Shown here piece after piece: positions 11,894 to 42,512 of a stretch of DNA of 43,474 nt (the first letter of the stretch is position 1; each line of letters starts with the position of its first letter). A program made the position numbers and the translations under genes. This stretch comes from Verrucomicrobiota bacterium (GTDB lineage Bacteria > Verrucomicrobiota > Verrucomicrobiia > Limisphaerales > CANJXF01): contig JBBQRQ010000040.1 of NCBI GenBank assembly GCA_038214755.1, forward strand, positions 1 through 43,474, given 5' to 3'. The notes under the pieces are model-generated. The model saw nothing but the letters and a program-made list of their open reading frames with translations. It was not told where the DNA came from and made no database searches.

Positions 11894-12166
11894 ATGAGTG
11901 TAAAGCAAATTGAAGCGACCATTGGAGCAATGTCCCCCAACGAGCGGTTAAAATTTGTCCGCTGGTTTGAGACGCATCGCCACGAGTTGATTGGCGCCGA
12001 AACAGACGATGACTTAAGCGAGGCACAGAAAGCCGAACTGCTCCACCGGCGCCGCGAATATGACGAACACCCGGAGCGGTTTGTCCGCATGGATAAAAAA
12101 TCCCTCGACCAAATGTTCAGGCGTGTCCGCAAAAATGTTGCCGCTCGACTTTCATCCACTCGTTGA
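11894..12166 (+). CDS. putative addiction-module antitoxin
   Basis: 90 aa; 'MSPNERLKFV...LSEAQKAELLHRRREYDEHPE' resembles TIGR02574-type antitoxins; overlaps the downstream ParE-like start. Confidence 0.7.
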   Translation: MSVKQIEATIGAMSPNERLKFVRWFETHRHELIGAETDDDLSEAQKAELLHRRREYDEHPERFVRMDKKSLDQMFRRVRKNVAARLSSTR

Positions 12167-12441
12167 GTCGGACCTCGCCGACAGCGCCGAGTGGTATGCC
12201 CGCAGGCAGCCCGGTCTTGAGAAACGTTTTCTCGCGGAAGTCCGCCGGCGTTTCGACGGTCTTCCCGCAGGAGCCAATCTGTATGCCGTCCGTTTTGCTG
12301 ACATTCGCCGAGTGAATTTGCCCGTCTTCCAGCATGGCGTTTTTTATTTTATCGCCGAGGAAGCCGTCGTCGTGCTGGCGTTTTACATGGCCACCGTGAT
12401 TCGGAAGTCGAATTGTAGCGACGCAGGAAAAAATATTCCTA
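12135..12441 (+). pseudogene. ParE/RelE-family toxin, frameshifted near its C-terminus
   Basis: 'LDFHPLVESDLADSAEWYARRQPGLEKRF...RRVNLPVFQHGVFY...VVVL'; the canonical end 'GVLHGHRD' lies in another frame after ~12378, and that frame has a TAG at ~12416. Confidence 0.65.
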
Positions 12442-12466
12442 ACGAGCAATATCCCCTGCAGATTTG

Positions 12467-12596
12467 CAGTTCGTCCGCGATTACCTCGAAATGTTGGACG
12501 AAGATAAACAACCTGCCCGCGCTGCCAAAAGATGTCGGAAAAATAACGGAGAAATATTTGGAGGCGTTTGAGAAACTGACGGGGAAAACGCTTTAG
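12467..12596 (+). repeat. degenerate direct duplicate of the purC 3' end (11697-11834)
   Basis: Last 51 nt match at 49/51 (11784-11834 vs 12546-12596, including TAG); upstream 'TTCGTCCGCGATTA(T/C)CTCGAAA' shared, with indels between. Confidence 0.92.
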
Positions 12597-13921: not shown

Positions 13922-14059
13922 CGCGGGATGGCCCGTGGCAAGAGGAGCACAAACACTGCGCTCGCAACTTTGGAATTTGTATTTATACCCGGGAAATGGT
14001 AAAACTTTGTGAATTAATTCCCGAAAATTTTCGCGATGCAAAATATTTATTTTCGTTCG

Positions 14060-20721: not shown

Positions 20722-23499
20722 TTGTATGCTAGAACATTGCTCGTGAGATTTATCCCATCTCAATCTGTTTTCAGGCTTCTGCGCGGAGGAATCCTATTTC
20801 TTGCCTTCACCATTTCTTTCTCCGCCATTGCCCAAACGGGTTCGGTCGTGACAGTGGATGCGGACAAGGTGCTTGTGTTGAATGGGCGCAAAGTATTTCC
20901 GATTGGTTTTTCACCCGGCCCGCCTACGAATGGGAAGACACCCGATGGCAATGATGCGCTCCAGGAGTTCCACGATGCCGGTGCGCTTCTCTTTCGCATC
21001 ACACAGACAATTAACTGGAATAGCCAGTTGATCACCAACCAGCAAGCCGCGCTAGATTGGGCGGCGCAACACGGGATGTATTGCTGGCTGAACCTTCGCG
21101 AGTTATCGAAGTTTGCAGCGGGCGATACCAACACGGAAGCATCACTGCGCAACATAGTCGATACCTTCAAGAATCATCCGGCTCTGGGTCTATGGAAGAA
21201 CTTCGACGAAGCCTGGTGGGGCGGTGTCTCAGCCGCCGACCTTCAACGGGGTTACAACGTCATCAAGCAACAGGATACCAACCATCCGATAGTTCAAACC
21301 CATGCGCCGCGCGGAACCGTATCAGACCTCCAACCTTATAACGTTGCGACCGACATACTCGCGCTCGACATCTATCCAGTAGGTGTGCCTCCCGGCGCGA
21401 ACTCCCTTCTTACCAACAAGGAGATCAGCATGGTAGGCGACTACACGCAGTTCCTCGATCAGGTTGGCAATGGGCAGAAAGAAATCTGGATGATCGAACA
21501 GATTGCCTGGAGTGGCGTAACGCCTCCGAGTAAGACGCTGGTCTTTCCTACCCTCAGGCAAGAGCGCTACATGGCCTACCAAGCTATCATCAACGGCGCG
21601 CGTGGCTTGATGTTCTTTGGCGGTAATGTTGCCGCAACCTTGAATGCGCAAGACGCCGCTCTCGGTTGGAACTGGACGTTTTGGAATGAGGTGCTCAAGC
21701 CGGTAGTCAGGCAACTGGGCGATAATAGCGTTCTTGCCGCCACCTTGGTTCAGCCAAACTCCACCTTACCCATTACGATAAGCGGCGCGACCTCACCGGA
21801 CTTGGAATTCTGTGTCCGCGAAGCGTCGCCCTATCTTTACATCCTTGCCAGCAAGCGGGAGGGCGCCACGGTCAACGTTACCTTCAATGGCCTGCCATCA
21901 TGGGTGGCTGGTGGAGAGGTTCTCTACGAATTGCCCCGCACCGTCCTCGCGACCAACGGGCAGTTCTCCGATGTCTTCGCGCCATTCGATGTCCACGTTT
22001 ATCGCTTCTCACAGACCAACCAGGTTCCAAACATCCTTGTCCAACCTCGCAGCAGGACAAACTTTTCCGCAACAGCGGCTACCTTCAGCGTTACGGCCGA
22101 TGGAACCGGGCCTTTGACTTATCAATGGAAAAAGGATGGTTCAAACGTGGTGGATGGCAGCAACATTTTTGGCGCGACCTCGCCAGACCTGACGCTATCC
22201 AATGTTTTGCAAGCTAACGCAGGCAACTATACCGTCGTGGTTGGGGGATATGGCAGTGTCACCAGTGCCCCTGCAACTTTGACGGTCATCTCCAATCAAG
22301 CTCCTATCATCATCACCCCACCTCGTAGCCGCACCAACGATCCCGGAACCACCGCTACCTTCAGCATTACGGTTGCTGGAAGCGGTCCTTTCACCTATCA
22401 ATGGAGAAAGAATGGTTCTAACCTCGCCGATAACGGCACTACGATTGGCTCTACCTTGGCGACTTTGACCTTGTCCAATGTCGCGCTATCCGATGCGGCT
22501 GGTTATACCGTGGCAGTCACCGGCTACGGCAGCATAACAAGCGCGCCACCAGCGACGTTGACAGTTGTATCTCCTCCGTCCAATTCGTTGATTCTCTACG
22601 AGCCATTTGACTATACGAACATCGGTGGGCAAGTGGGCAGTAACACGCCCGCGAACTGGACCTACAACGGCAGCGGAACCAACGACCTAAACGTGACCAG
22701 CGAAAACCTTGCTTATGCCGGTTTGCGTTCTTCGACCGGCAATAGCGTGACCAATGGCGGGATCGGTTTGGGAGTGCGTCGCTTATTCGGCACAGTTGTC
22801 AGCACGGGCGCCGTTTATTTTTCCGCGTTGTTCCGAATCAATGACCTTGGCTACGGCGTTTGGAATGGGGCCGCTTCGCAAGTCGGCGCGCTGACTGCGC
22901 CGGACAACACCAGCTTCCGTCTGGCTGTCATGGTTCAATCGAATAGTCCGATCAGTTATCTCATCGGCGCGCAGAAAGGTGGAACCGGCGCTACTACAAC
23001 GCTTGATGCTACCGCACATTCCGCCGGACAAACTATTTTTCTGGTGGGTAAATATGATTTTGGCGCGTCACCCAATCGCGTCTCTCTTTGGATCAACCCG
23101 CCCGCTTCAACGTTTGGCAATGGCGCTGAACCAACCAGCGGCTTTACATCCGCCACAACCGGCACAGATGGGTTCACCATCGACCGGTTTAATATGCGGC
23201 AGAATACGGTGGCGAGCGTGCCTGCCGCAATGCAATGGGACGAGTTGCGCATCGCGAACTCATGGGCGGCAGTGACCCCTCCAACAAGTATGCTGCTGAC
23301 GGATGTAAGAAAACCTGGATCGTTTCAATTTAGTTATACGAACAGCAATAACCAAAGCTATACCGTCTATGCTTCCACCAACTTGACGACCTGGTCATCC
23401 ATTGGCACAGCGACACAAAGTCCACCGGGCTGGTATAAGTTCATCGACACTTCACCGACTAACTATAGCAAGCGCTTCTATCAACTGCGTTCACCTTGA
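20722..23499 (+). CDS. secreted modular protein: glycoside-hydrolase-like TIM barrel, two Ig-like domains, beta-rich domain and C-terminal putative sorting domain
   Basis: Signal peptide ending 'SAIA-Q'; 'LVLNGRKVFPIG', 'FKNHPALGLW..FDE', 'DILALDIYP', 'MAYQAIINGARGLMFF'; two 'P.I..QP.S.T...G...F.V...G.GP.TYQW.K' repeats; ends 'KRFYQLRSP'; start uncertain. Confidence 0.75.
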   Translation: MYARTLLVRFIPSQSVFRLLRGGILFLAFTISFSAIAQTGSVVTVDADKVLVLNGRKVFPIGFSPGPPTNGKTPDGNDALQEFHDAGALLFRITQTINWNSQLITNQQAALDWAAQHGMYCWLNLRELSKFAAGDTNTEASLRNIVDTFKNHPALGLWKNFDEAWWGGVSAADLQRGYNVIKQQDTNHPIVQTHAPRGTVSDLQPYNVATDILALDIYPVGVPPGANSLLTNKEISMVGDYTQFLDQVGNGQKEIWMIEQIAWSGVTPPSKTLVFPTLRQERYMAYQAIINGARGLMFFGGNVAATLNAQDAALGWNWTFWNEVLKPVVRQLGDNSVLAATLVQPNSTLPITISGATSPDLEFCVREASPYLYILASKREGATVNVTFNGLPSWVAGGEVLYELPRTVLATNGQFSDVFAPFDVHVYRFSQTNQVPNILVQPRSRTNFSATAATFSVTADGTGPLTYQWKKDGSNVVDGSNIFGATSPDLTLSNVLQANAGNYTVVVGGYGSVTSAPATLTVISNQAPIIITPPRSRTNDPGTTATFSITVAGSGPFTYQWRKNGSNLADNGTTIGSTLATLTLSNVALSDAAGYTVAVTGYGSITSAPPATLTVVSPPSNSLILYEPFDYTNIGGQVGSNTPANWTYNGSGTNDLNVTSENLAYAGLRSSTGNSVTNGGIGLGVRRLFGTVVSTGAVYFSALFRINDLGYGVWNGAASQVGALTAPDNTSFRLAVMVQSNSPISYLIGAQKGGTGATTTLDATAHSAGQTIFLVGKYDFGASPNRVSLWINPPASTFGNGAEPTSGFTSATTGTDGFTIDRFNMRQNTVASVPAAMQWDELRIANSWAAVTPPTSMLLTDVRKPGSFQFSYTNSNNQSYTVYASTNLTTWSSIGTATQSPPGWYKFIDTSPTNYSKRFYQLRSP

Positions 23500-25544: not shown

Positions 25545-25604
25545 GCGGGCAACTTACTTATCAATTTGAAAAATACAACCCCAGGAGAGGACAGGTCGGG
25601 AAAT

Positions 25605-25875
25605 AACCACAGAGGCCCAGCGCGGCGGAGCCGCAACCCCAATGACCACCGGATTTAAACGCAGAAGTCGCAAAGGTGTTCGCAGAGGCGCGCAGAGGAT
25701 GACCTTCGCGTCCTTTGCGTGAACCTCCGCGTCCTCTGCGTTAAAATCATTCGTCCCAAACAGCAGGGGAAATATCTTGTCGCAAATGCGCGATCCTTCG
25801 ACATTGTAGGACAGAGACCCAGAGTTTCCCAACATGCTTTCGATTCTCCCTTGTGTCTCTGCGCCTCTGTGGTTG
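25605..25875. repeat. nested nonamer-type palindromic elements
   Basis: Outer AACCACAGAGGC (25605) / GCCTCTGTGGTT (~25864-25875); inner TTTAAACGCAGAAGTCGCAAAGG ... CCTCCGCGTCCTCTGCGTTAAA (25654-25745). Confidence 0.7.
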
Positions 25876-26011: not shown

Positions 26012-28153
26012 ATGAGGACTCATTTCTTTTTTCCCACGGGCGCGATCGCTGTCGCGCTGGCCGGACTGTTGGGTCTTGGTTGTCATAAAGCTTCCAAGAC
26101 TTCTCTGCGCGATGACGCCGAAGGCCGTAAGCCGAAAGATTTCCCCGAACTGGCCCTCGACATTTTCCAGCCGATGGATGGCGGAATCAAGTTGGGGCCG
26201 GAGGAAATCAAGGGACGCAACACCTGGAACCTCTGGTGCGGCGGCGACGAACAATTTTGGGAACGGATGTCGCGGGAAAGTTTTGGACTCATCGATTTGC
26301 TCAAGACAATTGATTCGCGTAATCGCTCGAAGCGCTTCAAAGAAATGGGTCTGATCAACGAACCCGGTTTCCGCGCAGCGACCAGGCCGGACAAGCATGG
26401 TCTCTGGATAGATGAACCCATTGAAGGACAAGGTGAGCCTGCGGGTATTGACCCGAAGGTTTATGGCAGGCCGAGTGGTGTGATGGGCTTCAGGATTTTT
26501 GATAACCCGGACTTCAAAGGTGAAGCGGTGAAAAAATGGGAAGGTTCCCGTAACTACAGTGACGGCGACTATGCTGTGAGTCGTGAACTGATTCGTCCGT
26601 ATCGAGTCGGTATCTCGTGCGGCTCATGTCATATCGCGTTTCATCCGTGCAACCCACCGGCTGACCCGGAAAACCCGAAGTGGGAGAACCTTGCCTCAGC
26701 CATTGGTAATCAATACATCCGTGAAGGAGCGGTCTTTGCCCATAACGTAAAACCCGGCGGGCTTTTTTGGGAAATGCTCAAGACCCAACCGCCCGGCACT
26801 TCCGATACCTCCCGCATCGCGACCGATAACATCAATAATCCGAACACCATCAATCCTATCTTTCAATTAGGCGCGCGACTCTCCGCTGCATCCGAGGAAA
26901 AAATCGCGGGCGATAGCTTGAACCTTCCTACTGTGACCGCTTCGATGAAGGTCCCGCATGTCTTGAAGGATGGAGCGGATTCAGTAGGAGTGCCCGGCGC
27001 GACCTTGCGTGTCTATATCAACATCGGCAGCTATTCGCAGCATTGGTTGCAACAACACAACGCGCTTATTGGTTTACGAAAGCAACAGCCATTCAGCATT
27101 AAAACCGCGCAGGCCAACTCTGTTTACTGGCTTGCCACGCAGGAGAAGTTTGTGAATGTCGCGAACTTTTTCAAGCGTCTCCAATCCTATCGGCTCGAAG
27201 ACGCGCCTGGAGGGAAGGACTACCTTACGACTGACGAAACGCAGATGACGCGAGGCAAGATCGTGTTCGCCGAGAATTGTGCGTCGTGTCACTCGAGCAA
27301 ACGTCCGCCGAATGGTGTTGATGATGACGAATGGTTTCGCAAAGAAGTAATGAAAGAGGATTTTCGTCAAGGTAACTTTTTCTCCGATGACCGGCGTTAT
27401 CCTATTACCAAGATCAAAAGTAACGCATCGAGAGCCTGCGCCACCAACGCCAAACGCGGACATATCTGGGACTCGTTCTCCTCTGAAACCTATAAGAACC
27501 TCCCATCGGTGGGCGACATCGAGGTATGGAATCCTTACACCGACCAGAAGGAGAAGTTCACTGTGCCGGGTGGAGGGACAGGTTATTATCGAACGCCGTC
27601 GCTGATTAGTGTCTGGTCGTCCGCTCCATTGCTGCATAACAACGCCCTGGGCAAGTTCACCGGTGATCCATCGGTGAAAGGTCGTTTAGAAGCTTTTAAT
27701 GATGCGATGGAGAAATTGCTCTGGCCGGAGAGGAGATTGGACAAGAACTCCATCTGGCGCACCAGTCAGGAATGCAACCTGCAGATACAAGGATCGGTGC
27801 TGCCCCAACCATTACGCACCCTACTCAAACCACACCTTGATTCAGATGGTTACTTCCGGCTGGGTCCTATTCCAGAAGGGACACCGATCAACCTGCTCGG
27901 CAATCTCGACCCGGATACGGACCCATTGGAGTTGGTCGCTCTCTGTTTGAAGATAAAGAAATCATTTTTGAAAATTAAGTTGGAACATCTCGATTCCACT
28001 GAAGGAAAAGAGCTATTGAGAAATGAGGTAGCGCCCGCATTATTCAAAGCCAGTAAGTGTCCCGACTTGATTGAGGACCGTGGTCATTACTTCGGCACGG
28101 AGTTGAGCGATACCGACAAACGCGCGTTAATCGAATTCATCAAGACGTTGTAA
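26012..28153 (+). CDS. di-heme c-type cytochrome lipoprotein, RoxA/CCP-MauG superfamily
   Basis: Lipobox 'LLGLGC'; CGSCH (26618-26632) and CASCH (27278-27292); 'YRTPSLISVWSSAPLLHNN'; C-terminal 'RGHYFG...DKRALIEFIKTL'. Confidence 0.82.
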   Translation: MRTHFFFPTGAIAVALAGLLGLGCHKASKTSLRDDAEGRKPKDFPELALDIFQPMDGGIKLGPEEIKGRNTWNLWCGGDEQFWERMSRESFGLIDLLKTIDSRNRSKRFKEMGLINEPGFRAATRPDKHGLWIDEPIEGQGEPAGIDPKVYGRPSGVMGFRIFDNPDFKGEAVKKWEGSRNYSDGDYAVSRELIRPYRVGISCGSCHIAFHPCNPPADPENPKWENLASAIGNQYIREGAVFAHNVKPGGLFWEMLKTQPPGTSDTSRIATDNINNPNTINPIFQLGARLSAASEEKIAGDSLNLPTVTASMKVPHVLKDGADSVGVPGATLRVYINIGSYSQHWLQQHNALIGLRKQQPFSIKTAQANSVYWLATQEKFVNVANFFKRLQSYRLEDAPGGKDYLTTDETQMTRGKIVFAENCASCHSSKRPPNGVDDDEWFRKEVMKEDFRQGNFFSDDRRYPITKIKSNASRACATNAKRGHIWDSFSSETYKNLPSVGDIEVWNPYTDQKEKFTVPGGGTGYYRTPSLISVWSSAPLLHNNALGKFTGDPSVKGRLEAFNDAMEKLLWPERRLDKNSIWRTSQECNLQIQGSVLPQPLRTLLKPHLDSDGYFRLGPIPEGTPINLLGNLDPDTDPLELVALCLKIKKSFLKIKLEHLDSTEGKELLRNEVAPALFKASKCPDLIEDRGHYFGTELSDTDKRALIEFIKTL

Positions 28154-28299
28154 GCCGAAATCATCTTATGAAACGAAATCGGTGAAATTACATTGAACAC
28201 ATAAAATGAACGAGATGATTACCGAGCGAAAACATATTCAACGAAGTCTTGCGCAGCGCGCTCCCCAGTCCTTGTCATTACCTATATCTCATCGTACCT

Positions 28300-28525
28300 T
28301 CTTCAATCCTGTAGGGATTGTGTCACTTAGCCCAGGGTTGCGAGGCACGAGCTACCCTGGGGCGAGGGTAGGAAATTCTTCCAACCCCATCGGGGTTGCA
28401 TCTCATCTTAAATTTGCCTGCCGCTACAACCCCTTCAGGGTTGAGGTTACTGGGTGCGGTCCACCCAGGGTAGCTCGTGCCTCGCAACCCTGGGCTGACC
28501 GATACAATCCCTTTGGGATTGAAGA
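28300..28525. repeat. 226-bp multi-hairpin palindromic element
   Basis: AGCCCAGGGTTGCGAGGCACGAGCTACCCTGGG / CCCAGGGTAGCTCGTGCCTCGCAACCCTGGGCT perfect arms; terminal CAATCC..GGATTG and internal AACCCC..GGGGTT hairpins. Confidence 0.9.
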
Positions 28526-28693
28526 GGTCTTCGACAAGCTGGTAGGAACCAGGGTCGCTGCCCACCGATTCGATATGACAACGGCGAAGCAAACTAGATA
28601 CGCGCTTCAACACTTATGAATCAATTCCAATTACAACCAAAACAACGTTCTGCATAGTGATGCTTAGCGGAACCAAATTAAAAAGGAACTACC

Positions 28694-29131
28694 ATGGCCA
28701 CTACCGTAAAACAACTACTCAAAATGTCCGGTGAACAACTGGACGAACTCTTCAAGAACAGTCCTGCTGGACCTATCCCCAACGGCGAAGCGACAGGCAC
28801 AGCTATCGTTGCGCCGGGAAGTGAGTTGACTGGCATCGCGGCCAAGCTCGTCCATTTGTTTACCTGGCAGGGCAAAATATTCGACGGCAAGAACGGGACG
28901 TTGCGCAATAAAATTCTGCCGCTCGGACACAAAGCCATCGTCGCTCAGGTATATAAAGACAAGAGTTGGTTCGACGGCAAGGAATGCATCGTGCTCGACT
29001 ACTCGAAGACCTCGCTACTCGCCCAATGGGTGCGAGACGAAATCCGGCTAGTGGGTCCGAACACTTACCTCGGTATCGTCTATTGGAAGAAAACCAAGAC
29101 CATCGACTTTGCGCTGGAGTTTCCTAATTGA
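28694..29131 (+). CDS. conserved hypothetical protein, probable lipocalin-like beta-barrel (145 aa, no signal peptide)
   Basis: AAGGA RBS; 'LDELF...G.IP.GE..GTA', 'WQGKIF', 'SWFDGKECIVLDYSKTS', 'VRDEIR.VGP..YLG'; paralogous to the N-terminus of the next gene; fold is inferred. Confidence 0.8.
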   Translation: MATTVKQLLKMSGEQLDELFKNSPAGPIPNGEATGTAIVAPGSELTGIAAKLVHLFTWQGKIFDGKNGTLRNKILPLGHKAIVAQVYKDKSWFDGKECIVLDYSKTSLLAQWVRDEIRLVGPNTYLGIVYWKKTKTIDFALEFPN

Positions 29132-29164
29132 TGGGTAGTCGCCGCCTGCCAACGAAAAAAATAT

Positions 29165-31060
29165 ATGGCTCTGGATCGCGCGCAGTTAATGAACCTTTCG
29201 CAGGCTGAGTTGGACGATTTGTTCAAGCGATCTTCCGCAGGCAACATCCCGGAAGGCGAAGGTAGTGGAACGGCCTTAGTCTGCCCGGCCACTTGTTGTG
29301 GAAAAATCATAGCGTGGTTCGCGCGATGGTTCTGTTGGCAAGGCAAAGTTTTTCATGGCAAAGAGGGATGGTTGGTCAACCGTGTTTCTCCCTTTAGTTT
29401 CCAGGCGATCAAGGCCAAGGTTTACCAGGACAAGAGTTGGCTGGATGGCAATGAGTGCATCGTGCTCGACTACTCCAAGACTTCACTCGTTGCGAAAATG
29501 GTCCGCGATGAAATCCGCGAAGTAGCGCCGGGACTCTACCTGGGAAAAGTCTATTGGGGACGTAAACGGTTGATCGACTTCATGGTCAGTTTCCAATACG
29601 AGCCTGCGCGCAAGTGCTGGCGTCGTACTTGGGCGACGTTGGGTTTGCTTGGAGTTATTGTCATCACCTATCTGGGAGTGCGTTTGACGAGTGACCGTCC
29701 CGTGACTTACGACAATCTCGTCGAGCATTTCAAATACGGTTCTACCGGCGGCGAGCGCACCTCCGGCATTCCTATTTCACTTTGGAAAGTGATTCCGAAA
29801 CTATTTGCGGGCTACCTTCCTGGGAACGGCTTGCAGTCTCTCGGCTTTGTTTACGAGGAAGGAAAGGAATTTCCCATCGGCACCTCCCGCCGCACTGTTC
29901 AAGGTATAGACCGCATCTTTCTTAACTGCGCCGTTTGTCATGTCGGCACCGTGCGCGATACGGCAGAGAGCAAGCCTCGCATCATCGTTGGCATGCCGGC
30001 TAACACGGTTGATCTCCAGGCATTCCAACGCTTCCTTTCCGCCTGTGCCGCTGATGAAAATTTCAATGCCAAACGAATCATGGATGAAGTGGCCAAGCAG
30101 AAGACCGATGACAGACTCAATCGTGTGCTGCTCCGATTCCTTGGTATAGACCTGATGCGTCAACGGCTGCTGACCTTGCGGCAAAGGTTTACCTTCATGG
30201 ATCGCGAACCTGATTACGGACCCGGCCGGGTAGATACCTTCAATGCCCCGAAAGTCCTGCTGAACTTCCGCATGGATAACCTGCCTACCAATGAGTGGGT
30301 AGGCATCTGCGACTTTCCTTCGGTATGGAACCAACGCAAACGAAAAGGGATGCACCTTCATTGGGATGGCAATAATGACTCGGTGGAAGAACGCAATCGC
30401 AGCGCAAGCTTCGGCACGGGCGCTACTCCCCCTACCCTTGACCGCGCCTCTATTAAACGCATGGAAGAATGGTTACTCGATGCCGCGCCGCCGCCTTATC
30501 CCTATTCCATTGACCGTGCGTTGGTGACCAAAGGCGAACCTCTCTACCTGGAATATTGCGCACGCTGTCATGGCAAGAATGGGAGCGACTTCACTGGCGA
30601 ACTGGTCGGCAAGGTGACGCCGATTGAGGAGATCAAAACCGATCGCCATCGGCTCGATTCCTATTCGTCCGACCTCTGCGCGAACCAGAACCTTCTCTAT
30701 GCGGCCTATCCCGAAGATCGCTTCAAACATTTTCGCAAGACATTCGGTTACGCCAACCAACCACTCGACGGTCTTTGGTTGCGAGCGCCTTATCTGCACA
30801 ATGGCTCGGTGCCGACGCTGCGCGATTTATTGGAGCCAACCGAGCAGCGCCCAAAGGTCTTTTATCGTGGTTATGATGTTTATGAAGCAAAGCGCGTTGG
30901 GTTCGTCTCAAACGTGGCTCAAGAAGGTCCTAAAAAGTTTTTCAATGTCGATACGGAACTTCCGGGCAATGGTAACTTCGGCCACGACGGAAAAGAATAC
31001 GGAACCGATCTCAGCGCGGAAGATAAGGACGCCATTGTCGAATACATGAAAACTTTTTAA
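29165..31060 (+). CDS. fusion protein: barrel-like domain, transmembrane helix, RoxA-like di-heme c domain
   Basis: Residues ~1-145 are paralogous to 28694-29131; TM 'WATLGLLGVIVITYLGVRL'; 'EHFKYGSTGGE'; CAVCH (29927) and CARCH (30557); 'PLDGLWLRAPYLHNGSVPTL'; 'GNGNFGH...AIVEYMKTF'. Confidence 0.85.
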   Translation: MALDRAQLMNLSQAELDDLFKRSSAGNIPEGEGSGTALVCPATCCGKIIAWFARWFCWQGKVFHGKEGWLVNRVSPFSFQAIKAKVYQDKSWLDGNECIVLDYSKTSLVAKMVRDEIREVAPGLYLGKVYWGRKRLIDFMVSFQYEPARKCWRRTWATLGLLGVIVITYLGVRLTSDRPVTYDNLVEHFKYGSTGGERTSGIPISLWKVIPKLFAGYLPGNGLQSLGFVYEEGKEFPIGTSRRTVQGIDRIFLNCAVCHVGTVRDTAESKPRIIVGMPANTVDLQAFQRFLSACAADENFNAKRIMDEVAKQKTDDRLNRVLLRFLGIDLMRQRLLTLRQRFTFMDREPDYGPGRVDTFNAPKVLLNFRMDNLPTNEWVGICDFPSVWNQRKRKGMHLHWDGNNDSVEERNRSASFGTGATPPTLDRASIKRMEEWLLDAAPPPYPYSIDRALVTKGEPLYLEYCARCHGKNGSDFTGELVGKVTPIEEIKTDRHRLDSYSSDLCANQNLLYAAYPEDRFKHFRKTFGYANQPLDGLWLRAPYLHNGSVPTLRDLLEPTEQRPKVFYRGYDVYEAKRVGFVSNVAQEGPKKFFNVDTELPGNGNFGHDGKEYGTDLSAEDKDAIVEYMKTF

Positions 31061-31070
31061 GACCTTAGTT

Positions 31071-32567
31071 ATGACCACTCAAACCAAACGGAGAATTATC
31101 AAGGCGCTTGTCGTTCTGGTATTGCTCGGCGGAGCGGGCGCTTTGTTTGGATGGTATAAATTTTTCCGTGAAGTCGAACAGCCAGCTTTCGCCGACGAAT
31201 CCGAAAGGTTCAAGTATGGTTCCATCGGCGCCGAGTTTTCTCGCGGCATTCCGTATTGGATATGGGTCGTCATGCCCCGCATCTTTCCCGACCTTATGCC
31301 TGGCCCTGGCGGTTATAAGGCGTTCGGATTGGTTTGGGAGGAAGGGAAGGAACTGCCTGTCGGCTTCAGTAAGAAAGTCGTTGGCTTTCCCCGTGTCGCG
31401 AATAACTGCGCTATCTGTCATGTCGGAACCTGGCGCAGCAAGGAGGAGGAAGTGCCCCATGTCGTGGTCGCAGCGCCGTCGCATACCGTCGATGTGCAAG
31501 GTATGATTCGCTTTCTCGCGAAGGCCGGTAGCGATTCGCGTTTTAACGCCGGCAACATTCTCGCCGAGATTGCTCGCGAAACCAAACTCTCCTTCATCGA
31601 CAAGCAACTCTATCGCTTCGTTATCATTCCGATGATGAGAACCGCGTTGCGACAGCAGGAGAAACAATTCCTCTGGATGAACCGCCCCGGCTGGCCGAAT
31701 TGGGGTCCTGGTCGCGACGACCCGATGAACCTCACGAAATACTTTATGACTTCGCAACCAGTGGATAACTCGACCGGCCAGGCGGACTTCCCGAGTAACT
31801 GGAACCTGCAATCCCGCAAAGGCACGAATTTATTTCTCAACTGGAGTTGTGATACACCTTCAGTCCATTCGGTCTTGATCGACTCCGCGCTCGGTCTCGG
31901 CGCAGCGCCCGATAAAAACAATCGGTTGAGTTATCCGATAGATTTATTGAACTGGAAACTGACGCGGCGCGAATGGTTCAAAAAAAGAATGGATGACCTC
32001 GACGATTTTCTCAGCAAGCTACCACCGCCCAGGTATCCATTTCCTATCGACGCTTCCTTAGCTGCTCAAGGGAAACCTATCTATAATCGCTCCTGCTCTG
32101 AATGTCACGAGGTAGGCAAACCGCGCACCAACAAACCTATTCCCATCGACGAAATAGGCACCGACCGTGAACGTCTCGATACCTGGACAAAAGCCGCCGC
32201 TGATCAGGCCAATGAAGCCGTAAAGAACCTTGGCATTGTGCGTCCTGACATGGTGAAAAACTTCGGTTATTGTTCTCCGCCTCTCGATGGCATCTGGATG
32301 CGCGCTCCCTACCTTCACAATGGTTCCGTGCCGACCTTGCGTGACTTGCTTGAACCTGTGGCAGCGCGACCGGCTTCCTTCTATCGCGGCTTTGATGTGT
32401 ATGACCCAATGAATGTTGGATTCGTCACACAAGGTCTTTCCGCCGCGCGCACCGGTTGGAAGAATGATGTGAAAGAACGTGGCAACGGCAATCAGGGTCA
32501 TAACTATGGAACGACTCTCAGTTCAGACGAGAAGAAGGCGCTATTGGAATATTTGAAAACGTTTTAA
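31071..32567 (+). CDS. membrane-anchored RoxA-like di-heme c protein
   Basis: N-terminal anchor; 'ERFKYGSIGAE'; CAICH (31407) and CSECH (32094); 'PLDGIWMRAPYLHNGSVPTL'; 'GNGNQGHNYG...ALLEYLKTF'. Confidence 0.85.
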   Translation: MTTQTKRRIIKALVVLVLLGGAGALFGWYKFFREVEQPAFADESERFKYGSIGAEFSRGIPYWIWVVMPRIFPDLMPGPGGYKAFGLVWEEGKELPVGFSKKVVGFPRVANNCAICHVGTWRSKEEEVPHVVVAAPSHTVDVQGMIRFLAKAGSDSRFNAGNILAEIARETKLSFIDKQLYRFVIIPMMRTALRQQEKQFLWMNRPGWPNWGPGRDDPMNLTKYFMTSQPVDNSTGQADFPSNWNLQSRKGTNLFLNWSCDTPSVHSVLIDSALGLGAAPDKNNRLSYPIDLLNWKLTRREWFKKRMDDLDDFLSKLPPPRYPFPIDASLAAQGKPIYNRSCSECHEVGKPRTNKPIPIDEIGTDRERLDTWTKAAADQANEAVKNLGIVRPDMVKNFGYCSPPLDGIWMRAPYLHNGSVPTLRDLLEPVAARPASFYRGFDVYDPMNVGFVTQGLSAARTGWKNDVKERGNGNQGHNYGTTLSSDEKKALLEYLKTF

Positions 32568-32800
32568 AGTAGCGCAGTGCGGCTCGCTGTGAAGATGGGG
32601 CAGAGTTGTCGTTTTGCCGTGACTTCGCTTCATTCGTCCTTGCAGGAGTCTGGGCGGAGCGGCAACTCCGACCTACTGTGGTGGTTGTGCAAGATGCGCT
32701 CGATATTCCCATTTCATTCAAAAAATAGTGGAGCGCTGTGGGTAAAGCGGTTATTGTCCCACCTATGTATTTTCTATCGCGGCGATCAAAGTTACTTCCC

Positions 32801-34450
32801 ATGACTTTTCCTCTCCCCATCCATCGGCTTATCGGCAACGTGTTTCTATTTCTTTTTTTTGTAAGCGAAGGACACGCGCAGGTCACGCTTCAGATTGGGC
32901 AGAACTTCACCGGGAGTACTTACGGAGTTCATTCGCAATCTCTCCCGCCGGATTCCAATGGAGAAATCGGCCCGCGCCACTTCATGGAATTTATCAACGG
33001 CACCGTATCCGTTTACAACAAAACCAATGGAGTAAGTATCCAACGTAAAACGAATTTGAAGTTTTGGTCCGACTCCGGCTTGATCATATCGCCGGACTCT
33101 GGAGTTTCCGACCCACGGGTCATTTACGATCCCACCGTGCAGCGTTGGTTCGCCGCGCAAGTGAATTACAGCGGCAACTCCACCGACCCCAGCTTGCAAG
33201 CAAACGACTTCTTGCTCGCCGTCTCTGCTACATCCGACCCAACCGGCTTATGGCGCGGATTTCAATTTCAAGCCGACCCGGACGCAGGCAGTTTCGCCGA
33301 CTTCCCGACCTTGGGGGTGGATGCAAACGCGGTCTATCTATCCGGCGACTTTTATCACGGGATGACCAACCCGCTTGGCGCAGGGTTGGTTTCCATTCCC
33401 AAAGCGGACCTGATTGCGAGCACGCCCACCATAGCGAATCGGACCTGGCATGGAGTCATGAGCTATGATGAGCGCGGGCAGGTTTTACAACCGGCAACTT
33501 GTTTCGATGGCACCAGCAGCGGCAATATTTTGGGCATGGGCGACATCGGAAATGATAGCGATCCGCATTCGAACATTGTGAACTTTGCCGTGCAAAATCC
33601 GGGGACGACCAATCCAACTCTCAGCGCTTCTTCCCACATCACGGTCAGTCCGTATGTAGTGCCTTTCAACGATCTCGTAGGTGTCCCGATGTTCAATCCG
33701 GTGCAACCGGACGGAACCCGTCACATCACCGCCAATGAAGCGCGATTGAGCGCCAAGGTTTACGCAGTGGCAGGGGTTCTTTATGCAGTCCATAGCACGG
33801 AAGTAAATGGTCGCATCGCCATTCGCTGGTATCGAGTTAATGCTACGACTCATACCCTTCTGGAATCGGGCACCATCGCCGACTCCAACCTCGACCTGTT
33901 TTTTCCTTCTATCGCTGCAAATAATAACGGCACCGTTGTCATCGGTTGCAATGGTTGCAGCGTCAACACCTTTCTTAGTTGCTTCGCCATTGTCGGCCAG
34001 ATTGTCAACGGCGTTGCCACGTTTGGCAGCCCTGTTCTGCTTAAAGCGGGAGCAACCAGTTATCATGGCGTTGATGAATTCATCGCCGAGTTACTCGACG
34101 AACCTCCGATCAGCCGATGGGGTGATTACAGTGCGATTTCGGTTGACCCTTCCGACCCATCTCGTTTCTGGACGATTCAAATGTATCCCTCCGACACGGA
34201 TGTCTGGTCCACGCAAATTACCGAACTGTTGACCACTTCCACTCCGACTTTATCCATCACGCTTTCCAATAATTTCGTGGTCGTCTCGTGGCCGGTAACG
34301 TCCTCTGGTTTTAATCTCGAATCCAAAACCAATCTCACCGGCGACGCATGGACCTTAATCAGCCAAAATCTTTCGACCAACAACGGCCAGATTTATTTTC
34401 AAACTCCTCGAACTAACGCCGCCACCTTTTTCCGTCTGCACAAACCTTGA
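32801..34450 (+). CDS. secreted beta-rich (propeller-like) protein with C-terminal putative sorting domain
   Basis: Signal peptide ending 'GHA-Q'; 'PPDSNGEIGP', 'SDPRVIYD...RWF', 'FADFPTLGVD', 'RWGDYSAISVDP...FWT'; ends 'ATFFRLHKP'. Confidence 0.8.
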   Translation: MTFPLPIHRLIGNVFLFLFFVSEGHAQVTLQIGQNFTGSTYGVHSQSLPPDSNGEIGPRHFMEFINGTVSVYNKTNGVSIQRKTNLKFWSDSGLIISPDSGVSDPRVIYDPTVQRWFAAQVNYSGNSTDPSLQANDFLLAVSATSDPTGLWRGFQFQADPDAGSFADFPTLGVDANAVYLSGDFYHGMTNPLGAGLVSIPKADLIASTPTIANRTWHGVMSYDERGQVLQPATCFDGTSSGNILGMGDIGNDSDPHSNIVNFAVQNPGTTNPTLSASSHITVSPYVVPFNDLVGVPMFNPVQPDGTRHITANEARLSAKVYAVAGVLYAVHSTEVNGRIAIRWYRVNATTHTLLESGTIADSNLDLFFPSIAANNNGTVVIGCNGCSVNTFLSCFAIVGQIVNGVATFGSPVLLKAGATSYHGVDEFIAELLDEPPISRWGDYSAISVDPSDPSRFWTIQMYPSDTDVWSTQITELLTTSTPTLSITLSNNFVVVSWPVTSSGFNLESKTNLTGDAWTLISQNLSTNNGQIYFQTPRTNAATFFRLHKP

Positions 34451-36192: not shown

Positions 36193-37293
36193 TCATTCCG
36201 GCGGAAAATGGTTTTCGGTCGAACTAGATTGACGCGGACCGTATTCTAAATTGCGGGAGCCAGTAGGATTGATGGCATACGTGAGCCGAGCACCGCCCAT
36301 CATAATGGAGGTTTCCAACTGCAATCGGGCATATCTTGGGGGATTCCCGAATCTAATGTAATAATTCTTTTTGAGATTTAGTGTCCAATTCGGTTGATCT
36401 TTCTCAAACTTAAATTCAACGACCGATTGATAATCGTCTTGCGGCGCTTCAAATGGGAATTCATAGTTATGCTCCACAAAACCGCCGTCAGGAATTTCCA
36501 TGCGAAACGACCACTCGTTTGCCTGTTTCCATTTTTTGGATTCGGGTTTGATTTGAGTGATGGTCAATGGGCCTTCGCCTGTTTTACGTTCCAGTAGGTT
36601 GACCCGAACAGGCATTCCATCGACGGGAGTACTGACGGCAAAAGAATCTCTCATCCCATATTGGGAAGTAATCAAATCAACTCCATTTCTTTTTTTTCGC
36701 AGGTGAAAAACCACTGGTTTATTTGCGTATGGAGTAAACCGTCCTTCAAACGGGTCGGCGTATTCAAAACTTTGCCGGGCATCTTTTGAATCGTAATAAC
36801 CTTCTTTGCTGACACTGAGGGACAGTCGTTTGCCCGTGCGATCTAGCAGAGAAAACAAGCCGCCGCCATCACTGATTGTGTTTGCCTGGGAAGTGCCTTT
36901 TTGAGAAGTATCGTTCCAACTAAAATAAATCTGCGCTTGTTGCACCGGCAGTTCATTTTCATCCACCACTTTCCCCCAAAAATTGATCGGCTGCTTCCAA
37001 TCGAAGTTGGGGTCAATTTTCATTTGCTCATACCGATACTTCGCAAACGAAGGATCGGTGGCCGTGGCAAAAATCTCAGCCAATTTAATTTCTTCCTTTG
37101 ATTCCGTTCCCTTCTCTCTCTGCGTTTCGGCAATTGAACTCGTGATTGTTTCTTTTGCTTCAGGATTTGGAACGGATGAAAGATGTCGCGCCTTTTTGCC
37201 GTTCAAACTTGAGATAAACAAAACCAATCCACAAATAAGCAGCACTGCCGATATTATCAGAATTTTAACGGAAAATCTCCGGCTTAATTTCAC
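36193..37293 (-). CDS. membrane-anchored protein with carboxypeptidase-regulatory-like domain; putative immunity protein (paralog 2)
   Basis: N-terminal TM; 'PINFWGKVVDENELPV..A.I', 'SKEGYY'; ends 'YAINPTGSRNLEY'; GTGA overlap with paralog 1. Confidence 0.75.
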   Translation of the reverse strand: MKLSRRFSVKILIISAVLLICGLVLFISSLNGKKARHLSSVPNPEAKETITSSIAETQREKGTESKEEIKLAEIFATATDPSFAKYRYEQMKIDPNFDWKQPINFWGKVVDENELPVQQAQIYFSWNDTSQKGTSQANTISDGGGLFSLLDRTGKRLSLSVSKEGYYDSKDARQSFEYADPFEGRFTPYANKPVVFHLRKKRNGVDLITSQYGMRDSFAVSTPVDGMPVRVNLLERKTGEGPLTITQIKPESKKWKQANEWSFRMEIPDGGFVEHNYEFPFEAPQDDYQSVVEFKFEKDQPNWTLNLKKNYYIRFGNPPRYARLQLETSIMMGGARLTYAINPTGSRNLEYGPRQSSSTENHFPPE

Positions 37294-38369
37294 TCAAACA
37301 CCTTCGGCTTGGGCTGAACGGACTCGTCGTATTCCAAATTACGGGAACCGGATGGATTCAAACAGTATTTCATGCTGATCGCGGCGTTTTGACTGTATTT
37401 AGGAATGATTTCAGCTTCGATTCGACCGAAATTTTTACCCCCTCGGCTCTTGACATAAAACCGATAACCCCAATCCGTTTTCCATTTTGGATCATCTTTG
37501 CTCTTTTCGATTTCAATTCGTTCGTAGCCAGACTCAGGAGCCAAAAACTTAAATTCGTCGTCGGTTTCAATAAGCCCTCCGTCGTTTCCTTCCAGCACAA
37601 CTGACCAATCAAATATTTTGCCTTCCGAGCGGCGGAAGCGAACCGCAACATCCCATTCCAGAGGTGGCGTGTTGGTATATTTTTTTCCCGCTATTAAATC
37701 CAAGTAATATTGTGTTCCGTCCGCCTTGAACCCGAAAAGTTTTTCTCCACAAATCAACGGTTCCCCCCCCGCTTTTTTTCCCAGATGAAAAACCACCGGC
37801 TTATTCGCGTCCGGCGTAAACCGTCCTTCAAATGGGTCGGCGTATTCAAAAGTTGAGTTTCGTGCCTCACGACTGCCGTAATAACCTTCTTTCTCAACAT
37901 CCACGTAAAGCCGCTTTCCCCGTCGATCTTTAAGTGAAAAGAAACCGTTGCCGTCACTTTTTGTATCTGCATTCGAAGTTCCTCTCTCCGATGTGTCGTT
38001 CCAAGTAAAATGAATTGATGCACCAGTTACCGGTTGTTCGTTTTCATCCACGACTTTCCCCCAAAAATTTATTGGCTGCCTCCAATCAAAGTTAGGATCA
38101 ATTTGCATTTGCTCATACCGATACTTCGCAAACGAAGGATCGCTTGCCTCAGCAAAAATCGCAGCTAATTGAATTTCCTGTTTTGATTTTTCCTGCGTCG
38201 CATTTCTAAGTTTTGATGGATTCTGGGTTCTTACAACTGTTTCTTTGGAAGATGTGTCCGTTGGTGTTTTTTCTGCGGTCGAATCTCCCGAGTGACCATT
38301 TCTCTTGAAAAACCACCACATGACGAAAAGACCAAGTAGTATGCAAATGAAAAACTGACTTCGCTTCAT
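37290..38369 (-). CDS. membrane-anchored protein with carboxypeptidase-regulatory-like domain; putative immunity protein (paralog 1)
   Basis: ATG 5 nt after the hydrolase stop; TM 'FFICILLGLFVMWWFF'; 'PINFWGKVVDENEQPVTGA', 'EKEGYY'; 'YCLNPSGSRNLEY'. Confidence 0.78.
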   Translation of the reverse strand: MKRSQFFICILLGLFVMWWFFKRNGHSGDSTAEKTPTDTSSKETVVRTQNPSKLRNATQEKSKQEIQLAAIFAEASDPSFAKYRYEQMQIDPNFDWRQPINFWGKVVDENEQPVTGASIHFTWNDTSERGTSNADTKSDGNGFFSLKDRRGKRLYVDVEKEGYYGSREARNSTFEYADPFEGRFTPDANKPVVFHLGKKAGGEPLICGEKLFGFKADGTQYYLDLIAGKKYTNTPPLEWDVAVRFRRSEGKIFDWSVVLEGNDGGLIETDDEFKFLAPESGYERIEIEKSKDDPKWKTDWGYRFYVKSRGGKNFGRIEAEIIPKYSQNAAISMKYCLNPSGSRNLEYDESVQPKPKVFE

Positions 38370-38374
38370 ATGAT

Positions 38375-41300
38375 TTAATCCTCTGGAATCACGCGTAATT
38401 TTTGTCCAAGCGTTTTGTAAAAACTCCCAACTCGTTGAATATTCCAATTGAACTGAGCGCTGTGCTCATCCTGGTTTCCACGAAAATTGAATGCAGCAGT
38501 CAAATCGATTCCCCCGCTTTGAATTACTCCGGTTACTCCGCTGGATGCTCCCGCTGCTTTTGATCTTGGCCTCGCCGCAAAAGCCATTTTTTCTCGCGAG
38601 TCAGTGATAACCAAAGAGAACTGCATAACGTTTGTGCCGTCGAAAGAATAATAACCGCGCGTATCCGGCTTGTAGATTGTTTCATTCCCCTGCCAACTCA
38701 CGTTCACACCCGCAAAGGTTGCTGTCGCCAGAGCATAATCGTTCGTGTTGAAAAAGTTCACGATCGAGTTGTTTACGGCTGCCGCAATATTAGTCGAGTA
38801 ACCACGATAGGTATCGGGCGTTGGTGATGTGACTTCTTTGGTCGTGAAAACATTGAAACTCGCAAACGAGGTATCATAACAGTGCGCGGGAACCGCGGCC
38901 TGCATGAGCACGTAATTATCGATCGCCATTACATTGCTGGCCGCGTGTTGTTTGAGCGCTTCCATCATCACAATGTTCCCCATGCTATGCGCCGCGACAT
39001 TAATGGAGTAATCCGGCAGACGCTCATGCTGCCAGTTGAGATAACTGGCCATAGCTGTGCCCGATTGAAACGCGCGGAACTCACTTTGGTTGTAGGTGAA
39101 AAGAGACTGCGTATCCGAAAAGAATTTAAAATCACCTTGGGAAAGGGCCGGCCAACGCACCGCAGCAAACCTTCCTTGATAACCCTGCCAATAGAGCCGC
39201 TTGAACATGGTTTGGGAAAAGCTTTCGTAATCCCACTGCCCCATGCGCCAACCATGCACGAAGACAATCAATTGTTTTTCTTCCGCGGAATCGTTGCCTA
39301 AAATGCGGTCGGATTTGAACGTGGCTGTTGCCGTGCTCGGTGTGGTGTCATAAACATTTTCCACATGTGCCTGCTCATATATCTCTTTGATGTCTTTTAT
39401 CTGAATCGATATTAAGGTTCCGGCGATCACTTCACCATTTTTATAGATCGTCAACACTAAGTCCCCCTTGCCTGGTGCTGAACCTTCAAACAGAAAATGT
39501 TTTCGGGTTCCATTGAAGTAACTGGCGGGAAAAGTAAGGGGAGAACCAAGCGAAACTTCTCCCATGCTTTGCCCGGGACTAATCTGGCCGTTGAGAAGAA
39601 TCATCTGCTGCGCTGCAATCGTGGAGTTGGTCAAGTAACCAATGCCTCCATCCGATTCTGTAGCTGGATAGATTTTAATTTTGACGTTGTCGGAATAATC
39701 CGACCAACCCAAGCTGACGCTGTAACCCTCCGCAGCAGGTAGTGACGGTACCCCGGAAATCCAGAGACGGGCAAAATCTTCCAAGTCGCGTTCCGACGTA
39801 ATTTTTCCGTCAAGGTAATCTCCACCGTAGTCAATATCCTTTCCGATTCCGATAAAATCATCGTCGTTATTTACCCAAAAGGTAAACGGCTTTTTGTAAG
39901 AGGTATTATCCGATCCAGTGATAGTTCGGTCAATCGTACCATCGTGGTTAGCATCTACTTCCAGTTTGATAACATGCACCAGACAGGAACCCGTGTTGGT
40001 TTCACCAGCGGAGGGGGGTTTAGTAGTCAGAAGCACGCGGCCCGGCTCAAATGGAAAATATTCTCCATATTCGGAAAGAAGCCCGTTCTGATTTGTGCTG
40101 ATGGTTCCGTCCAGATTCACCTTGTAGGCTTTGTCAAAATAGAGGCCGAGATAGCCGAATTTATTGGTGTCGCCGTTGTCAATGGCTTGTTTGGCATAGC
40201 CCGCCACTCGGAACGAGTCATAGTAAGGCCCGAACTCGTCCAAGAATAAAAAGGGATTATTGCCTGAAATAATTAAGATCGGGGTGGAGTTGGTAATAGA
40301 AAAGTCTGTGGTTCCAGGAATCGGATTAATACTAGGCCGAGCGAAGTAATAACCGACCGTCCGCAGGACTGGCGGTAAGACCACCGGATACAGATTGTTA
40401 AGATTCGTAATGTAGTGGTTCGGATAAATATCTGTCCCCGCTCCGTACCACTCTTGGTGGATAAACGAATAGGCAAGCCCAAAAATGTTGGTTGGTGAGG
40501 GCCCGAAAAACCTATCATAATCAATGCCTATTCTGTCGGGACTAAAGGGGAAATAAATACCGGCGGATTCAGCGGAGGATAATACCCCTGGAATTGTAAT
40601 TACATTGGTCGGCGCTTGAAATCGGTAAGTAGCTCCGGCGTTGGTCAAAGTGAAGTAATTACCCAAATAACCCGAACTGAAGCCTCCATTGGTCAATCGA
40701 CCATTGTCGTTTAAATGGTTTAGATCAAAGACGAAATTGCGATAGTTATTGTTTTCTAAAAAAGGGCGGAACTCTGCGAGAGCCGAGCCATTATAAATGC
40801 CAGCATAAGCGTAAGTGGCCGGATTCGAGTGATACCTGTAATCCATTTGGCCCGTAGAAATCAGTTCAAAATAAAAGGCTTCTTCAGTATTGGCCGCTCG
40901 TAACAGAAAACTCAGATTCTGTTTCAGCTGTTCTCGACCATCATAAAATCGAATGCTTTGTTTGTAGGTGGATCCGGCGTAGAGGAATTGCCCGACCGTG
41001 CCATTGCCTGCAATGGTTTGCACCCAATAGGAATCGCTGATGTTCGTTGAAACCTGCTCTTGCGAAATTTGGGCGACATTGTTCGTGAAGTTGGCGCGGG
41101 AGAGGGTGAAAACGTTCGTTGCTAATGAGTAACTATTGAATCTGGTAACACGCAGGGCAGAAACGTCGTCCCGCCTGTCGGTGGCAATTAAATAAGAAAA
41201 TCCCCCGGTGCCGCGTGCTATCCAAAAAGAGGTCGCTGAACCGGGCGGATGCAGTGATACATATCCACTCCAAGCGGAACTTCCCGCCGAATAATTGGCG

Positions 41301-42340: not shown

Positions 42341-42370
42341 AGTTGTTTTTTTCCGGGCAGCAATCACCGC

Positions 42371-42402
42371 AAAATAAAAGGGGCGTGACTTACTCACGCC
42401 CC
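42371..42402 (-). terminator. intrinsic terminator within the 5' leader of the hydrolase operon
   Basis: Minus strand GGGGCGUGA-GUAAG-UCACGCCCC-UUUUAUUUU; perfect 9-bp stem ending 30 nt before ATG 42340. Confidence 0.8.
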
Positions 42403-42512
42403 GTTCCAGGTACTGGTGCACCTTTCAAGCAGCGCTTTCAGGCACGCCTTTTTGGGGCGTGCGCTCAGCGCCGCGTTGAAGTCCTTATGAAATCACCAGT
42501 TTCGGAACGGAC
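42371..42512 (-). ncRNA. putative structured cis-regulatory leader RNA (attenuator/riboswitch-like, class not recognised)
   Basis: Five nested stems across 42401-42510 plus an alternative 8-bp antiterminator pairing with the terminator 5' arm. Confidence 0.6.

Follow-up and report, generated by a model that had tools for sequence, protein, structure and literature searches.

A cluster of four genes at positions 26012 to 32567 was analysed within a 43,474-nucleotide stretch of DNA (the window) from a Verrucomicrobiota bacterium (contig JBBQRQ010000040.1, assembly GCA_038214755.1). The cluster encodes three predicted di-haem c proteins, designated A, B and C, and a small beta-barrel protein, designated S. 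It is a real, conserved and uncharacterised variant of the RoxA/FadCcp kind. The system may be a relay at the membrane for fatty-acid oxygenation and hydroperoxide conversion, a reading in which we place about as much belief as doubt. The genes of the cluster are listed below; aa denotes amino acids and ORF open reading frame.

26012-28153, + strand: gene A, 713 aa; predicted lipoprotein, di-haem c; intact ORF
28694-29131, + strand: gene S, 145 aa; calycin-like beta-barrel of eight strands, without signal peptide; intact ORF
29165-31060, + strand: gene B, 631 aa; S-type barrel (1-145), membrane helix (157-175) and RoxA-like di-haem domain; intact ORF
31071-32567, + strand: gene C, 498 aa; anchored by an N-terminal membrane helix (9-27), with a di-haem domain that is a paralogue of the one in B; intact ORF

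Family Assignment and Structural Models

The assignment of A, B and C to the RoxA branch of the CCP/MauG superfamily, which a preliminary description of this DNA had made from its letters alone, was supported by the CxxCH spacing, the shared motifs and the structural models. The predicted local distance difference test (pLDDT) score was 95.7 for the B model and 88.2 for the A model; C had no model of its own, and its RoxA-like fold follows from its 40% identity to B over 472 aa. The B model matched RoxA with a Z value of 20.8 (root-mean-square deviation 3.5, 378 aa), and the values for hydrazine synthase, MauG and BthA were 13.3, 12.0 and 10.2, respectively. For the A model, RoxA was the best Foldseek match and the only one under an E value of 0.001 (E 5.7e-5), and VIA-align placed RoxA, MauG and hydrazine synthase together at Z 9.3-10.6. 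PDB entry 9zau (E 0.067) was absent from the listed fold matches and was dropped. What A shared with B and C was motifs only, and the profile-profile alignment of A with B/C fixed just the haem-2 half.

PF21419 was matched by B and C, no Pfam or NCBIfam match over the cut-off was obtained for A, and PF03150 (bCCP/MauG/BthA) was unmatched at E <= 0.01 in all three proteins. Against the NCBIfam models of RoxA, RoxB and RoxC (NF050033, NF050034 and NF051462; cut-offs 1000, 900 and 900), A scored 16 bits, B 57-79 and C 73-87. None of the three is RoxA, RoxB or RoxC. NF040606 (cut-off 150) was passed narrowly by B (181.6 bits) and C (173.1 bits), each in two partial stretches, A remained below it at 37.1 bits, and full-length core members scored about 400-610 bits. 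We take NF040606 to represent the oleate-diol-synthase (FadCcp) type of Pseudomonas aeruginosa, the two being equated by name and motifs. In a FastTree phylogeny of the B/C family (midpoint root, with OdsA, OdsB and RoxA not among the rows), B and C were old sister subfamilies: of each rhizobial or cyanobacterial pair, one gene grouped with B and the other with C. Together, B and C form a sister subfamily of NF040606. Among 8000 candidates scored, 6684 proteins matched A and 7604 matched C at E <= 0.001, the latter count taking in distant relatives; the closest named relatives of A were mostly from Verrucomicrobiota.

Motifs and Predicted Topology

The intergenic gaps were 540 bp between A and S, 33 bp between S and B, and 10 bp between B and C. 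Two CxxCH motifs were located in each haem protein, at 203/423 in A, 255/465 in B and 113/342 in C, giving spacings of 220, 210 and 229 residues; the number expected by chance was at most 0.004 per protein. These motifs and the four intact ORFs on the + strand bear out the co-oriented genes, each with two CxxCH motifs, that had been described. A MauG-type motif had also been reported as common to the three proteins. The exact pattern was matched in A (529) and C (403), whereas the B version, QPLDGLWLRAPYLHN, departed from it at the first letter only, so that the claim stands as worded for A and C and in a loosened form for B. The histidines of this motif were H542 (A), H545 (B) and H416 (C), and that of A was kept in just 39 of 68 aligned rows. 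The C-terminal GH motif was found in all three proteins, as had been stated. Its histidine, H692 in A, H607 in B (where three residues are inserted after GH) and H477 in C, was invariant or nearly so among homologues.

One lipoprotein and two transmembrane-anchored proteins had been proposed, and the predictions agreed. The lipobox of A ended at C24, 57 of the 68 aligned rows from the loci had a cysteine at this position, and the strict lipobox pattern occurred in 82 of 119 close A homologues. Helices were predicted at residues 157-175 of B and 9-27 of C, both with positive charge on the N-terminal side, and the helix of C was present in 118 of 119 C homologues. From the lipobox of A and the charge beside the helices of B and C, the haem domains are predicted to lie outside the membrane and S and the N-terminal domain of B inside it. 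Hence, the earlier view of a periplasmic system holds for the haem domains, but the system is not purely periplasmic because the small domain, and with it the S barrel in the window's version, is predicted to be cytoplasmic.

The small domain is duplicated, as had been noted: S was 55% identical to residues 1-143 of B. It had no Pfam match, and its nearest named Atlas cluster was GXWXG/DUF4334 (0.87, 166 shared features), which serves as a lead only. The N-terminal barrel of the B model matched Tcur_1030 (PDB 4mve) with a Z value of 13.3 over 132 aa. The eight-stranded calycin-like barrel is therefore common to this domain and the Tcur_1030/GXWXG-DUF4334 barrels, although the identity was 17% and S lacks a Pfam match. 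A literature search found no functional paper on a barrel of the Tcur_1030 type. S also carried a conserved Trp.

S was not found by tblastn in 12 rhizobial, Ralstonia and cyanobacterial loci. Two candidates for it, the short gene that separates B from C in Rhizobium/Sinorhizobium and the N-terminal domain of a Ralstonia homologue, were rejected, as each aligned at 13-20% identity and was a hydrophobic four-helix protein instead. An unnamed four-helix membrane domain accompanied or was fused to B/C in rhizobia and cyanobacteria (L087:14504-14935, L088:14486-14917 and L061:4869-5273; N-termini of P0259, P0263, P0285 and P0305). A five-gene metagenome variant (L165:6780-7688, L211:7733-9928 and about 20 further loci) carried two extra genes between A and B. 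One, in 12 loci, encoded an S homologue (26% identical, E 2e-14) that is a lipoprotein and whose barrel is predicted to be exported; the other, in 22 loci, encoded an unrelated di-haem protein whose CxxCH motifs lay at 201 and 618. Neither had a Pfam match.

Haem Ligands and the Distal Pocket

The C-terminal His is the second ligand of haem 2 in RoxA (PMC10837239), and those of A, B and C aligned with the RoxA GH motif. One open haem (haem 1) and one bis-His haem (haem 2) are predicted for each protein. Residues of OdsA, OdsB and full-length RoxA were taken from papers and from partial alignments to PDB 4b2n. In these alignments, F301-W302 and F317 of RoxA corresponded to H399-W400 and F416 of B, and to N257-W258 and L274 of C. 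The bridging Trp is thus W400 in B and W258 in C; RoxB is described as being without it (PMC10837239). H399 and W400 were kept in all 22 B orthologues. At the RoxA-301 position of C homologues, Asn was present in 9/12 and His in 3/12, and Trp occupied the 302 position in 10/12. Core NF040606 members had Gln at the 301 position within a pocket motif Q-(W/Y)...RNxGE, and PA2077 and PA2078 have Gln there as well (PMC4496055).

The RoxA pocket is wholly hydrophobic, with F301 lying 4.1 Å from the bound O2, and exchange of F301 lowers the activity to 14-21% (PMC6797691). Such a pocket was not matched by B (H399/F416) or C (N257/L274). A Tyr placed at position 301 of RoxA gives no iron ligation, and one at position 317 does ligate (PMC6797691), so position 301 is a second-sphere site. 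We infer that His399 of B may be a second-sphere acid-base or hydrogen-bonding residue, which would suit peroxide chemistry.

Conservation and Distribution of the Cluster

The conserved-neighbourhood search that had been suggested gave a positive result. In metagenome loci centred on B (the best 80 of 584), C came immediately after B in 65 of the 69 with enough sequence and was elsewhere in the locus in three of the four exceptions; A was present in 17/17 loci with wide flanks. In the window's class (301 genomes, its own included), an A-type gene was found in 10, and the four same-class genomes with an A at least 69% identical all had adjacent B and C genes. The operon hosts were Verrucomicrobiota, Acidobacteriota, Planctomycetota, Chloroflexota, Cyanobacteriota and rhizobia. 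The distribution is patchy because B-like genes were few, occurring in 8 of 251 cyanobacterial-phylum genomes and 2 of 401 Pseudomonadota genomes. A literature search whose coverage largely excluded subscription journals found no description of the operon.

In Rhizobium 3841 and Sinorhizobium fredii, the order was OYE-B-(four-helix protein)-C-A-GMC, without S, and an annotated patatin gene followed GMC in the former. The Rhizobium genes pRL110490-495 correspond to patatin, GMC, A, C, the protein with four transmembrane helices, and B. For the root-attachment classes cited below, we take NE to mean neutral. According to RNA-seq data in the supplement of PMC11406972, transcripts of pRL110490-495 were jointly reduced in two mutants, RL3453 (1.5-2.6 log2) and pckR (0.8-2.0 log2). 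Two further listed flanking genes do not fall in these mutants, and all these genes are classed NE for root attachment (PMC11406972 supplement).

Neighbouring Genes and Fusions

The genes around A were examined in 79 loci (from the best 80 of 318 matches). S was a neighbour in 51, a catalase-like gene in 26, DyP in 25, an unnamed 433-aa protein in 25, B in 24, GMC in 21 and C in 18; GMC was often the sole partner found. Rarer neighbours were S8 peptidase (9), patatin (8), hydrolase-like (7), animal-haem peroxidase (4) and OYE (3) genes. In five cyanobacterial pair loci, OYE preceded B in all five, a lipase-like hydrolase flanked A in four and a lipoxygenase was present in two. Lipoxygenase occurred in four cyanobacterial loci overall, including L064 and L069, and a haem-c assembly gene in two. 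The B/C domain was fused to OYE (OYE-B, P0315) and to the catalase-like protein (catalase-like-B/C, P0323), and S was fused to GMC and to animal-haem peroxidase. The examined GMC sequence lacked a signal peptide and opened directly with the FAD motif. These neighbours supported the earlier suggestion that the substrate is probably hydrophobic.

GMC-patatin fusions of about 1560-1660 aa followed A-type genes at L227:11025, L228:11488 and L090:17825. Core or near-core NF040606 plasmid genes (L092, L093, L095 and L096) adjoined patatin, cytochrome P450, oleate hydratase, catalase-family and peroxidase genes, which extends the lipid context to the whole branch. In the window's own genome (G000), an unlinked patatin-like protein (L091:6781-9963, contig C2) of 1060 aa was polytopic and was 57% identical over 348 aa to the cluster-side patatins of other genomes.

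Exchange Between B/C and Catalase-Like/DyP Modules

Among the 79 A loci, 24 had B/C, 29 had catalase-like/DyP genes, none had both and 26 had neither; several of the last group were incomplete and 10 had GMC. Neither catalase-like nor DyP genes were found in any of the 80 B-centred loci. At the genome level, all 10 catalase/DyP genomes gave no B match, with a positive B control, and all 12 B/C genomes gave no catalase-like match, with controls detected in 3/3. The module label changed seven times on the A tree (FastTree), and at least five changes were forced by strong branches, including two sister pairs. This mutual exclusion suggests that B and C consume peroxides. Hence, we infer that B and C stand in for a pair of haem enzymes that consume peroxide, acting after A or beside it.

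Searches of the catalase-like neighbour against Pfam, NCBIfam and PDB sequences gave no match. It was so labelled because it was 32% identical to a RefSeq 'catalase family protein' and matched an Atlas entry in which 11-17% of members carry PF00199; we assigned P0349 and P0370 to the catalase-like group solely from their motifs. In one such partner (L026:12614-13843), Asn occupied the site of the distal His of the RefSeq catalase-family protein.

Comparison With Characterised Systems

The preliminary description knew of no characterised system with this layout, which overlooks a two-gene relay. PA2077 (OdsA, a 10S-dioxygenase) and PA2078 (OdsB, a 7,10-diol synthase) of P. aeruginosa are tandem RoxA-like di-haem enzymes of the FadCcp subfamily; they make and then isomerise a fatty-acid hydroperoxide, and the second enzyme also removes the toxic hydroperoxide (PMC4496055). 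This pair is the closest characterised system and comprises the sole characterised non-rubber members found. It shares with the window's cluster the tandem RoxA-like di-haem c genes in an operon, the two CxxCH motifs, the MauG motif, the C-terminal His and a polar residue at the RoxA-301 position (Gln there, His/Asn in B/C), and B and C pass NF040606 as the OdsA/OdsB type does. The window differs in having three haem proteins and a barrel rather than two genes, and membrane anchors or a lipoprotein rather than cleaved signal peptides. Moreover, B and C, at 182 and 173 bits against 400-610, lie outside the core NF040606 clade, and A scores 37.

RoxA/RoxB (PDB 4b2n) and RoxC share with the cluster the fold, the His/bis-His haem plan and, in B and C, PF21419. 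RoxC is a predicted lipoprotein like A, and RoxC lipoproteins are proposed to oxidise cell-wall fatty acids (PMC10837239). In contrast, A, B and C fell far below the three cut-offs, B and C have a polar distal residue and a haem domain about 170-200 aa shorter, and no rox-type context was present in the window.

Brash et al. in 2014 (cited in PMC9579011) reportedly described a cyanobacterial linoleate 10S-dioxygenase together with a catalase-related hydroperoxide lyase. The combination of an oxygenase with a hydroperoxide-converting haem enzyme is similar, and catalase-like and animal-haem-peroxidase genes occur in A loci. However, dioxygenases and lyases of that kind are b-haem enzymes of other folds, the c-type di-haem proteins B and C take the place of the catalase-like gene, and the catalase-like gene of A loci has Asn for the distal His in the family examined. 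With bCCP, MauG, BthA, MbnH and the gamma subunit of hydrazine synthase, the di-haem core (Z 7-13) and, in B and C, the bridging Trp were common. A, B and C differ from these in lacking PF03150 and in much larger insertions, and MauG and BthA have Tyr as the sixth ligand (PMC6405878) where His is predicted in A, B and C.

Proposed Function and Alternatives

In the proposed relay, oxygenation of an unsaturated fatty acyl chain by the lipoprotein A would yield a hydroperoxide, which the membrane-anchored B and C would convert or reduce, and the S barrel may carry lipid or product on the cytoplasmic side. The neighbouring genes and the example of OdsA/OdsB suggest a lipid substrate, and the reactions probably extend OdsA/OdsB chemistry. 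The division of labour is drawn from the exchange of B and C with catalase-like/DyP and from the polar His/Asn replacing F301 of RoxA; in its exact form, for A, B, C and S, it is possible but on the doubtful side.

Several observations weigh against the relay. The substrate evidence for A, B and C is all guilt by association, and A need not be the oxygenase because lipoxygenase or animal-haem peroxidase is present in some loci. For the A pocket, restricted alignments gave conflicting low-confidence registers, with K319 (by eye) or W345 (low-confidence hhalign) at the position of the bridging Trp. No lipase, GMC, OYE or oxygenase gene stood beside the window's cluster; in its genome, catalase-like, DyP, GMC and animal-haem-peroxidase queries were unmatched, and the patatin and lipase-like homologues were on other contigs, unlinked. 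The 80 B-centred loci, many of them short, contained patatin in six, GMC in 10 and animal-haem peroxidase in three. In the B/C tree, 18 of 19 core NF040606 rows formed a separate clade (support 100, branch 1.06) without B and C. The exclusion between the modules is not absolute, since P0323 fuses a catalase-like protein to a B/C domain, and genome G224, with A and catalase-like/DyP, had a distant 113-bit B/C-like match on another contig; the counts themselves come from loci that are kin and from 20 genomes whose completeness is not given. The Rhizobium OYE gene was unmoved (+0.1 and +0.25) in the two mutants (PMC11406972 supplement). Furthermore, the co-movement of pRL110490-495 is modest evidence for one transcript because the expression of hundreds of genes changes in both mutants and the main text of PMC11406972 does not mention pRL110495.

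A general defence against or use of peroxide we regard as less probable but worth serious weight. A, B and C would then reduce H2O2 or organic peroxides, or act as peroxygenases on a non-lipid hydrophobic compound with GMC-made H2O2, and no defined oxylipin would result. The CCP/MauG fold, the exchange of B and C with catalase-like and DyP genes, the GMC genes adjoining A and the bridging Trp (22/22 in B, 10/12 in C) are all consistent with such a role. However, it would leave the repeated linkage and fusion of patatin, lipase, lipoxygenase and OYE genes unexplained; PF03150 was unmatched, and the Gln/Pro/Glu trio reported on the distal side of bCCP, MauG and BthA (PMC6405878) was not recognised in B or C. 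Periplasmic electron transfer, in which His399 of B would close haem 1 and the three proteins would shuttle electrons between a GMC or OYE flavoprotein and the membrane, as membrane dehydrogenases do with their cytochrome subunits, is improbable. It would account for the predicted bis-His haem 2 of all three proteins, the invariance of His399, the GMC gene following A in many loci and the OYE-B fusion. Nevertheless, the ligation results for Tyr301 and Tyr317 mark position 301 of RoxA as second-sphere (PMC6797691), C mostly has Asn there (9/12), the GMC query was unmatched in the window's genome, and the examined GMC has no signal peptide, its sequence opening with the FAD motif.

Oxidation of a partner protein in the manner of MauG/MbnH, for example of S or the unnamed 433-aa neighbour, is a distant prospect. 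A matched MauG and RoxA equally by VIA-align (Z 9.3-9.8), and S, with its conserved Trp, accompanied A in 51/79 loci, but S has no signal peptide and is predicted on the opposite side of B's helix, and haem 2 is predicted to have His as its sixth ligand where MauG and BthA have Tyr (PMC6405878). The least probable account is cleavage of rubber or polyisoprenoids as by RoxA/RoxB, and polyisoprene cleavage by A, B and C is unlikely. Although RoxA was the best structural match and B keeps the equivalents of W302 and F317, no score exceeded 87 bits (range 16-87, cut-offs 900-1000), and A, B and C are predicted to be tethered to the membrane rather than secreted. His/Asn also replaces F301, the residue whose exchange cuts RoxA activity to 14-21% (PMC6797691), and RoxC lipoproteins, which are much closer to RoxA, gave no rubber cleavage (cited as unpublished in PMC10837239).

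The fatty-acid relay may be part of a larger scheme. Plant jasmonate synthesis employs a lipase, a lipoxygenase, allene oxide synthase, a barrel-type cyclase and an OYE reductase. More speculatively, and with a probability that we consider low, an undescribed and widespread bacterial oxylipin pathway of c-type haem enzymes may exist on the outward-facing side of the membrane, convergent with the jasmonate route. A would represent a new class of lipid oxygenase, the peroxide would pass to either of two interchangeable modules that are not related, B and C or the catalase-like and DyP enzymes, patatin would act upstream, and the cyclase-like barrel and OYE would act downstream.

Sequence Surroundings

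A promoter and terminator scan gave no excess over shuffled sequences. The A-S gap contained the following element.

28270-28541, no strand assigned: dispersed palindromic repeat, outside the conserved module

Its 62-nt arms (28300-28361/28464-28525) were 89% complementary, and 60 blastn matches were found on 25 contigs of the genome. A 137-aa ORF at 28206 that overlaps the repeat is probably spurious. A second, different palindromic repeat at 25600-25874 had 34 blastn matches on 24 contigs, so that repeats flank gene A on both sides; the two resemble REP-type elements.

Elsewhere, the window encoded a 990-aa DUF7133/HEAT/cytochrome c protein (571-3543) and an ORF with a borderline ParE toxin match (12060-12596; 26.9 bits, cut-off 23). 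Large predicted surface proteins were encoded at 14036-19717 (a reprolysin-like protease with autotransporter passenger repeats), 20722-23499 (with Ig repeats) and 32738-34450 (570 aa, without a Pfam match). The region 36193-42421 (- strand) had a lower GC content (0.45-0.47 over 36-41 kb), was possibly acquired, and held two paralogous carboxypeptidase-regulatory-like genes and a 1348-aa TSP3/DUF900 hydrolase gene.

Significance

Two activities of the RoxA branch are established in the papers found, namely rubber cleavage and the oleate dioxygenase/diol synthase reactions of P. aeruginosa, and the operon adds three further uncharacterised subfamilies to this branch. The copy in the tractable Rhizobium 3841 (pRL110490-496) makes the system amenable to testing. 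If B and C and the catalase-like and DyP enzymes do share one job, a single assay would assign a function to the two modules alike and identify what a group of bacterial DyP peroxidases naturally act on.

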